IMG/VR virus record: IMGVR_UViG_3300021289_000001
DNA length: 64,000 nucleotides
Strand: one strand, 5' to 3'
Source of the DNA: a virus
This document shows, piece after piece, positions 52,102 to 53,833 of this stretch (the stretch's first letter is position 1; every line of letters starts with the position of its first letter). The notes under the pieces were generated by a model. It ran no database searches. It worked only from the letters and a program-made list of their open reading frames with translations, and was not told the origin of the DNA. A program made the position numbers and the translations under genes.

Positions 52102-52652
52102 TCATGATCCTGGGTTACATCACTGCGCTGGCAATGTCTATCGTTGTTTTGCATGCTGCATTTGGGTTACAAGCGCCCTTTGGCAATATCTATCGTTTGT
52201 TGCACATTACCACTGGGTTACACATTGGTGTTGGCAATGTCTATCGTTGTCTTGCACTAAGGAAATGGGTTACACCTGGAATCTGGCAATGTCTATCGTT
52301 GCTTTGCACACGTTTAATGGATTGCACTGTTTCGCTGGCAATGTCTATCGTTTTTTGCACCCCCGTGTTGGGTTACATCACTCCCCTGGCAATGTCTATC
52401 GTTGTCGCATCACGAGAATGGGTTACACAATTAATCTGGCAATATCTATCGTTTGTTTGCACGACCGCAATGGGTTACATGTCAATCATGGCAATGTCTA
52501 GCGTTGTCTTGCATGTTTTTCACGGGTTACACCGCCAGCTTGGCAATGTTTATCGTTATGCACAGAGAAACTGGGTTACATCTCTACACTGGCAATGTCT
52601 AGCGTTGCATTCGCATCGTTTAAGTGGGTTACACCATTGAACTGGCATTGCA
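52102..52652 (-). ncRNA. TIGR-like dual-repeat guide array, downstream of the Tas-like gene (11 units, 22 spacers)
   Basis: Minus strand: alternating TGTAACCCA (9 nt) and TGCAAGACAACGATAGACATTGCCA-like (22-26 nt) repeats; every spacer is exactly 9 nt. Confidence 0.88.
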
Positions 52653-52672
52653 CTCCTGTAATGAGTTATATT

Positions 52673-53521
52673 CTATCTTTCGGCAAAAGGTTCTGAAATC
52701 GGCAATCCTTCGCCAACTCGCCATTGTAACCAGAAGTCAGCCAAAAATTGCTTGATCATCTTGCGCCATGCTCGGTTATGGAGATGACCATCATTATACA
52801 TGGTCTTGCCGTTATCCTTCACCGGCTCAGGATACAAGACGCGTTGGCGCGCTTTCTCGGCATAATAAATGTCCACATAGCCCGGCGTTTGTTGGCGGAT
52901 AAATTGATCAGCAATAATGAAACAGGTTGACTTGAGCGTCTTGTTGTATGGGCTGACAAAGCTTTCCATATTGCGATCACGCGCTGGAACCTTTGTCCAA
53001 CCCGGCTTTGGCTCAACGACAACAAAATATTTCTCACGTTCAGCGCCTACGCCTTTCCACTTCCAGCCCTGCGTGGGCGAAACGATTTTACCGTTTTCGT
53101 CCAGCCAGTATTCATAGAGCGCATAGCCGGCAAAACGCCATAACTTAGCAATGGAATCGAAGCGGGCAATGTCATCAACTTGGGCGATGAGCTTGGCAGC
53201 TTCACCACCGGCGCCCAAACCCTTGATGCTCGTGGCCCAATTCCAAATCGGCCCGCTGGCTTTGCCATAGTTGATCATCATTTTGCGGGCGATTTCCAGC
53301 CGATAGTCAATCTGAAAATCTTCCAGAAAATCATATTCGATCTGAGCGTCCATCCCCGACTTGCCCCGCTCGGCTGAACTAATGCGCAAGGTATGGCGTT
53401 GACGAAGCTTCATAAGCTCATCCCAAATCTGATAAGATTGCCACAACTGCGGATGCTTGCGCGGCTTGGATTCTGGGCGTTTGTCGATTTGCTCTTCGAG
53501 TTCAACTTTTTTCTTTGGCAT
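52673..53521 (-). CDS. Nop/IS110-C-terminal-domain RNA-binding protein without nuclease domain (TasA-like), 282 aa
   Basis: True start MPKKKV (SD AAGGAG). Coiled coil then SIKGLG..AAKLIAQVDDIARFDSIAKLWRFAGY, YNKTLK, AWRKMIK. No N-terminal DEDD RuvC, no HNH, no SG recombinase wedge. Flanked by arrays. Confidence 0.82.
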   Translation of the reverse strand: MPKKKVELEEQIDKRPESKPRKHPQLWQSYQIWDELMKLRQRHTLRISSAERGKSGMDAQIEYDFLEDFQIDYRLEIARKMMINYGKASGPIWNWATSIKGLGAGGEAAKLIAQVDDIARFDSIAKLWRFAGYALYEYWLDENGKIVSPTQGWKWKGVGAEREKYFVVVEPKPGWTKVPARDRNMESFVSPYNKTLKSTCFIIADQFIRQQTPGYVDIYYAEKARQRVLYPEPVKDNGKTMYNDGHLHNRAWRKMIKQFLADFWLQWRVGEGLPISEPFAER

Positions 53522-53540
53522 CTTGATTCTCCTTTTTACA

Positions 53541-53833
53541 TAGTTTTGATGGGTTACACGAGCCGTGTGGTAATTTACTGTTGTCTTGCACTTATATTTT
53601 GGGTTACACCACATCAATGGCAATGTCTGTCGTTGTCTTGCACGTCATTGCTGGGTTGCATTCCCACTGTGGCAATGTCTATCGTTATGTTGCACCTTTC
53701 CTCTGGGTTACACTGAATTGATGGCAATGTCTATCGTTGTTGCACAAAAATGCTGGGTTACATCCCTCCGATGGCAATGTCTATCGTTGTTTTTGCACGG
53801 CGGCTTTGGGTTACATGTATTTGATGGCAATAC
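53541..53833 (-). ncRNA. TIGR-like dual-repeat guide array, upstream of the Tas-like gene (6 units, 12 spacers)
   Basis: Same two repeats and 9-nt spacers; last spacer abuts the gene's SD. Confidence 0.88.

Follow-up and report, generated by a model that had tools for sequence, protein, structure and literature searches.

A near-invariant purine before box D in the spacers of a phage TIGR-TasA array

The window analysed here, a 64,000-nt stretch of DNA from the virus record IMGVR_UViG_3300021289_000001, contains a TIGR-TasA system of a tailed phage in which the last base of the 9-nt spacers is almost always a purine. On the minus strand, the 34 spacers have G at position 9 in 20 cases, A in 13 and U in one (33 purines out of 34), and this position adjoins the UG that opens each repeat. 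Among 170 non-redundant phage arrays, position 9 went from free (N) via purine-only to a fixed G or a fixed A, and the window array stands in the middle of this series. The system is a member of the TIGR-TasA family published in 2025, and the purine rule is an undescribed refinement of that family, not a new element. We lean towards a requirement imposed on the guide RNA by the Tas protein, box D being extended from UG to RUG.

The tasA gene and its split array

The tasA gene (P0001; 52673–53521, minus strand) encodes a Tas protein of 282 aa with coiled-coil and Nop domains, the C-terminus of which reads ...SEPFAER. Pfam gave only a weak match to Transposase_20 (IS110 C-terminal), and the PHROGs label was "transposase". 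When P0001 and 39 relatives were combined into a profile, it matched TaTasR (9mty, E 3.5e-32) and TasH (E 1.5e-11) in the PDB. The AF2 model (pLDDT 92.7) had the TasR and TasH cryo-EM structures as its top folds and the IS621 bridge recombinase next. P0001 has neither an HNH nor a RuvC domain, which makes it a TasA; binding and repression would be expected from such a nuclease-free protein, not cutting. The genes for the large and small terminase subunits, a helicase, HNH endonucleases and a dCTP deaminase are neighbours of tasA and indicate that the 66.8-kb source contig is a tailed phage. No adaptation gene was found at the locus.

The TIGR array as a whole covers positions 53831–52091 on the minus strand and is a regular two-repeat array split by tasA. 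Parsing yielded 17 dual-spacer units between 53824 and 52102 on that strand. Each unit runs from box C (CCA) through a 9-nt spacer A, the loop repeat and a 9-nt spacer B to box D (UG), and reads ...AUUGCCA, spacer A, UGUAACCCA, spacer B, UGCAA.... All 34 spacers are exactly 9 nt long, and both the loop and the edge repeats open with the UG of box D and close with the CCA of box C. The loop repeat, UGUAACCCA, has 9 nt and is exact in 14 of the 17 copies. The edge repeat (UGCAA...AUUGCCA) varies from 22 to 26 nt, with indels located just 3' of UGCAA, and the resulting unit period is approximately 49–53 nt. The original prediction had described a nearly invariant short repeat and a long one tolerating indels in its centre, and these counts agree with it.

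Subarray 1, upstream of tasA (53539–53831, minus strand), holds six units (53824–53541) and starts 6 nt past the stop codon of the upstream ORF (53838–54497, minus strand). Subarray 2, downstream of tasA (52091–52642, minus strand), holds 11 units (52642–52102), from spacer A7 (52642–52634) to spacer B17 (52110–52102), and is closed by the terminal edge-like UGCAAAAAAAC at 52101–52091. On the minus strand of segment 52080–52101, UGCAAAAAAAC gives way to UGAUGCACCCA, a loop-like element of 11 nt (UG...CCA) which, lying past the last unit, may be the remnant of a further one. A degenerate 18th unit, read from the sequence, was present at 52643–52682 on the minus strand and overlaps the stop codon of tasA. 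It consists of CGA as box C, then AAGAUAGAA, the loop UAUAACUCA, UUACAGGAG and the edge UGCAAUGCCA. The latter (52652–52643) is a minimal 10-nt edge repeat, corresponding to the long repeat minus an insert of 12–16 nt. In two related loci (L001 and L002) the equivalent of this 18th unit is intact, with the tasA stop codon (TAA) inside the loop repeat. Of the first 95 related loci retrieved, 66 had an array, and in each of them it shared the strand of tas.

An intrinsic terminator-like hairpin with a 12-bp stem and a U tract (51911–51950) is located on the array strand (minus), approximately 140 nt downstream of the last unit; a predicted rho-independent terminator is also found at the end of published TIGR arrays (PMC12045711). 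Rfam returned nothing above threshold for the array region. In the gap that separates the array from the following gene (ATG near 51895), a promoter-like site near consensus (TTGACA, 17 nt, TAAAAT) was visible at 52021–51993 on the minus strand, approximately 45 nt upstream of the strong terminator. A CyaR-like Rfam match below threshold (E 0.22) covered 51917–52016. The segment 51911–52021 could be a small RNA or a leader/attenuator.

Position 9 in the window and in related arrays

The sole rule-breaker among the window spacers was AAGGGCGCU, spacer A of unit 16 (52172–52180, minus strand), which ends in U and corresponds to AGCGCCCTT on the plus strand. Seen from the plus strand, the same bias appears as 33 of 34 spacers beginning with C or T, and our recount reproduced both this number and the single exception at 52172 given in the original prediction. 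No position besides 9 was biased, purines making up 14 to 24 of the 34 bases (41–71%) at positions 1–8. With a local purine background of 0.56, the probability of at least 33 purines out of 34 was 7e-8, or approximately 1e-6 once corrected for nine positions and two base classes.

Single-sequence searches for relatives of the window locus gave no matches. A protein search returned 252 homologues of P0001, and alignment-seeded scans led to 95 loci. Additional pattern scans of viral contigs added arrays with the edge repeat UGCGAGCCA; a generic box pattern drew mostly collagen-like coding repeats, which were removed by an entropy cut. After removal of the coding repeats, 124 loci with true arrays remained, representing 85 distinct Tas proteins. 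The proteins of the window's clade (clade I, 54 proteins, support 100/99) are associated with 935 unique spacers ending in G (668), A (255), U (10) or C (2), that is 98.7% purine. The bias was equal in spacers A and B. The other spacer positions (1–8) of clade I held 46–57% purine. Homologous arrays lacking the bias, which the original prediction had named as the refuting case, were therefore not what this clade presented. In clade II (6 proteins, support 100/100), 89 unique spacers ended in G (75), A (13) or C (1), giving 99% purine. The remaining 25 TasA proteins, with the same two repeats, had 471 unique spacers ending in G (117), A (151), U (138) or C (65), or 57% purine.

The arrays of most clade-I members carry the repeats UGCGAGCCA and UGAAACCCA. 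The same pair is found in the TaTasR array (L284), in which position 9 is unconstrained. Because identical repeats occur without the rule under other Tas proteins, the rule follows the protein lineage and not the repeat sequence. The trait requires at least two changes on the Tas tree, the deep branches of which are weak. Among the purines at position 9 of the relatives, 72% were G, compared to approximately 50% at positions 1–8, a preference for G that exceeds what composition would give. In successive tertiles of spacer GC content, the G share at this ninth position was 0.63, 0.74 and 0.80, a rise that is predicted both by a structural purine and by a preference in the targets. Only six near-identical unit pairs were found among orthologous spacers, too few for a comparison of substitutions.

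The residue R129 (in KLWRFAGY) is located nine residues past the conserved Arg that, according to the literature, holds the uridine of box D. Both purine clades have Arg at this place, except for three clade-I proteins, and the other proteins never do. It was rejected as the sole determinant of the rule, as the three proteins without this Arg (L048, L056 and L068) have arrays that are still 100% purine. Concerning the TaTasR array, the segment encoded by L284 (CALFYV010000090.1) was 100% identical (53/53 aa) to the PDB chain of TaTasR. This accession is titled as an uncultured Bacteriovoracaceae MAG, and the TaTasR paper speaks of an archaeon of the Thermoproteota; probably the element is viral or was binned differently.

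The SpTasH array of Salicola phage CGphi29 is built of the repeats A-AG-CGAG-CCA and A-AG-ACAA-CCA with 8-nt spacers, and the base before its box D is a fixed A. In the literature, this fixed A of SpTIGR is counted as part of a 10-nt repeat. The heteroduplex of SpTasH has 8 bp, compared to 9 bp in TaTasR and PlTasA. A scan with AG as box D retrieved more than 120 loci. The array detector required CCA, 9 nt and then UG or AG, and 85 non-redundant arrays of each type were sorted by the state of position 9, with arbitrary thresholds between the classes. The AG-type arrays comprised 14 with N, 9 with 80–90% purine, 12 with mixed R, 42 with fixed G and 8 with fixed A. For the UG-type arrays, a sample in which the window's clade is overrepresented, the corresponding numbers were 28, 3, 40, 12 and 2. 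The scans were seeded on one edge-repeat family, and these class frequencies are not population estimates. The size of the Tas protein was alike (TasA-sized) in all classes, indicating that the state of position 9 is not tied to nuclease fusion.

Candidate roles of the purine

The explanation we favour, with modest confidence, is that Tas demands the purine in its guide RNA as the first base of an extended box D, RUG. By homology with the solved TasR and TasH complexes, a TasA dimer would hold the CCA and UG of the loop repeat and those of the joined edge halves, and the two spacers of a unit would pair with opposite strands of one DNA site. In such a complex the position-9 purine would neighbour the uridine of box D at the dyad centre, where the protein may contact base 9. 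The freely programmable guide would most likely be 8 + 8 nt, the ninth base being presumably unpaired or its pair restricted to R:Y. A box D of this kind is favoured by the lineage specificity of the rule despite identical repeats, by the series leading to fixation, by the 8-bp precedent of SpTasH and by the preference for G beyond composition. Several observations point the other way. In mixed-R arrays, A and G alternate from unit to unit like spacer bases and are not homogenised like repeats, an alternation compatible with a base still engaged in reading the target. In TaTasR, the nearest relative with a solved structure, all nine bases are paired. R129, the sole candidate reader residue common to both clades, is missing in three clade-I members. 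The original prediction had proposed either a structural ninth base or a fixed RY in the targets; these were the right two options, and the comparative data lean towards the structural one.

The geometry of the target bears on the second option. TasR cleavage leaves 8-nt 3' overhangs with the cut opposite the fifth spacer base, and at each unwinding junction the guide base that pairs first lies directly against the flanking duplex. These published statements on overhangs and junctions imply that both spacer 3' ends meet at the target centre. The target would then read as spacer A joined at its 3' end to the reverse complement of spacer B, and if base 9 is paired, its centre is 5'-RY-3'. The RY geometry predicted for the junction of the two half-sites is therefore sound.

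Natural targets were searched for at several levels. In the 64-kb window, no self-target was found for the 17 guides at up to two mismatches, and a reversed-geometry control gave the same noise. The approximately 2 Mb of retrieved loci contained no exact matches, and matches with one mismatch were at the control level. A same-locus match in L089 was rejected as a self-target, the spacer being complementary to its own stem. Scans of IMG/VR with guides 4, 10 and 13 in the form 8+NN+8 yielded 27 independent sites, of which one had the predicted centre compared to 1.7 expected; these three scans speak neither for targets nor for a paired position 9. With spacers CAGUGGGAA (A) and GCAAUGACG (B), guide 4 matched 18/18 nt at L293:2678–2695 and L285:9028–9045 (IMGVR_UViG_3300002220_000856 and 3300000558_000221), in an unrelated phage. 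This match sits near the 5' end of a metallophosphoesterase-like ORF of 269 aa starting with MSAIAAVIADIHCGH. It is only a lead, as approximately one such match is expected by chance. With guide 10, the 18-mer TGATTGACTTGACCGCAA, which includes a tandem TTGAC TTGAC, was encountered in six unrelated contexts among the viral contigs L419–L433, where the centre TT was common to 6 of the 11 independent 16-mer matches. It was discarded as a target of guide 10, the predicted centre being AC and not TT.

The main alternative, which we hold to be less likely, is that base 9 pairs with the DNA and that these lineages accept only sites centred on 5'-RY-3' (GC in the case of fixed-G arrays), a target motif of which the spacers would be a mere reflection. 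The meeting of both spacer 3' ends at the target centre would make such a preference feasible, and the unit-to-unit variation of A and G within arrays is that of spacer bases. The nine pairs formed by all the spacer bases of TaTasR and the impairment of its cleavage by double mismatches at the spacer 3' edge argue in the same direction, and the trait tracks the protein lineage, as a motif read by the protein would. The G share at position 9 also tracks the spacer GC content, but a neutral purine-only site would do so as well. Weighing against pairing are the heteroduplex of only 8 bp formed by SpTasH, which stands at the fixed-A extreme of the series, and the lack of any natural target in the window, in the retrieved loci and in the three IMG/VR scans. 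Screens of the flanks with TasR and TasH, in which the centre was not randomised, gave no targeting motif. A broader and equally tentative version is that a motif is required after all in many TIGR-Tas lineages, where the Tas dimer would read the two central base pairs (RY here, GC or AT where the base is fixed) and base 9 of the guide would pair with them. If this were true, an internal PAM-like requirement would be hidden in the so-called spacer or repeat; it would limit the sites available to TasA repressors and Tas nucleases and may aid the discrimination of self from non-self.

Two further explanations do without a role in target recognition. One, which we judge improbable, is that the process creating or copying units sets their boundary beside a purine and that this base has no role in the mature complex. 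According to the literature the mode of spacer gain in TIGR arrays is unknown, and the lineage specificity of the trait would be compatible with such a by-product. However, the locus has no adaptation gene, and the rule holds in both spacers of every unit across 54 diverged proteins and in arrays without common spacers. Mutation would erode a 99% bias in the absence of selection, and the fixation of a single base in many arrays resembles a functional motif. The other, more improbable still, is that the purine pairs or stacks within the RNA independently of the protein, with a fixed U or in a sheared pair as in K-turns. Pairing with a fixed U would restrict the base to G and A, and box C of C/D RNAs starts with R. 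Such a structure is hard to reconcile with identical edge and loop repeats that lack the rule under other TasA proteins or under TaTasR; the repeats offer no U other than the neighbouring one of box D, K-turns are reported to be lacking in tigRNAs, and the naked unit RNA folded no better than shuffled sequences (z -0.63).

A requirement for a purine would have practical consequences, as TIGR-Tas systems are under development as compact, motif-free DNA-targeting tools. If it is needed in many lineages, guide design and target choice change, with either only 16 nt programmable or a target centre that must read RY. For the purine lineages, array annotation tools would have to redraw the border between spacer and repeat.

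Known TIGR systems and the long edge repeat

The guide lies 5' of box D or D' in C/D RNAs, as in TIGR. TIGR repeats are defined as starting with UG (box D) and ending with CCA (box C), the guide being 5' of RUG (PMC12045711), so the "box C-like" RUG of the original prediction had the two boxes reversed. Its K-turn analogy did not hold either: the RUGAUGA and CUGA boxes are absent here, and tigRNAs are described as compact, without K-turn or L7Ae. Box C/D sRNPs (Nop5/Nop56-58, L7Ae, fibrillarin) resemble TIGR systems in the Nop-domain dimer, the two guides per RNA and the position of the guide 5' of a UG box. They differ from the window system, which would target DNA, on both strands, has no methyltransferase partner and conserves only R-UG and CCA.

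The dual-repeat TIGR-TasA systems of the FpTIGR type (Flavonifractor plautii; Faure et al. 2025, PMC12045711) share with the window a nuclease-free Nop-domain Tas flanked by arrays, alternating edge and loop repeats, two 9-nt spacers per unit and repeats of the form UG...CCA. Their edge repeat measures 8–12 nt and their unit 36 nt, compared to 22–26 nt and 49–53 nt in the window; their closing stem has 2 bp instead of 4 bp, and the window TasA lacks the C-terminal Y/H of canonical dual-repeat TIGR. The SpTIGR-TasH system (HQ634153; PDB 9W03/9W04) has the edge-repeat core GCGAGCCA in common with the window, as well as a purine immediately 5' of box D, a fixed A in SpTIGR units and alternating G and A in the window. 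Of the two, only SpTIGR-TasH has 8-nt spacers, an AG box D, an HNH nuclease and the self-processing residues Y289/H296. TaTIGR-TasR (PDB 9MTY), the closest solved relative of the window TasA (27% identity, Foldseek E 3e-10), carries a RuvC nuclease, which the window TasA does not, and its natural spacers are without a purine rule at position 9. Stem-loop TIGR systems (PlTasA, BlTasA, PateTasR and CsTasR; PMC12045711; Xu et al. 2026, 10.64898/2026.09.09.750476) resemble the window by the absence of Y/H and by a long inter-unit segment. In the window this segment is still a conserved repeat with a conserved stem of only 4 bp and no CUU, and the protein, unlike those of stem-loop TIGR, sits in the dual-repeat clade. 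No mention of a purine rule at position 9 was found in the searchable text of the TIGR literature, although a sequence logo might show it.

The short repeat of the window is the loop repeat, and the long one is the edge (processing) repeat, at which the units are separated. Three features lead to this assignment: the array opens with a truncated copy of the long repeat, most relatives carry the canonical 9-nt edge repeat UGCGAGCCA at its place, and its ends (UUGC and GCAA) form the closing stem of the unit. This stem has 4 bp in the window (3 bp in two units), compared to 2 bp in canonical arrays. According to the original prediction, the sequence alone was insufficient for telling which repeat is the guide loop and which the processing site; read against the relatives, it does tell.

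Together with 12 relatives having long or variable edge segments (L001, L002, L005–L008, L031, L033, L037, L052, L058 and L087), the window forms one subclade with a support of 99/88. In SpTasH, pre-tigRNA is self-processed by Y289/H296 (PMC13421893). These C-terminal Y/H residues were absent in all 13 long-edge proteins, P0001 included, and kept in 68 of the 72 canonical-edge proteins by pattern, or approximately 71 by eye. Stem-loop TIGR systems are also reported to be without Y/H, and a CUU motif at the base of their stem marks the processing site; no CUU was found in the consensus edge repeat of the window. The missing Y/H residues suggest that the long repeat is cut in its variable part by an RNase of the host.

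Four of the long-edge relatives (L006, L008, L052 and L037) have unit-specific closing stems of 5–13 bp, which corresponds to the stem-loop architecture. The loss of Y/H along with the long edge looks like a transition from dual-repeat to stem-loop inside the dual-repeat clade, and the locus, with an edge repeat that has grown into a linker bearing stems, may illustrate an intermediate step by which dual-repeat arrays could give rise to stem-loop ones. At L052/L089:2590–3030, a stem-loop TIGR array was observed with perfect unit-specific stems of up to 10–11 bp, for example GGAGAGAAGC and GCUUCUCUCC. One spacer A of this array is complementary to the following stem arm, and in this way mimicked a self-target.
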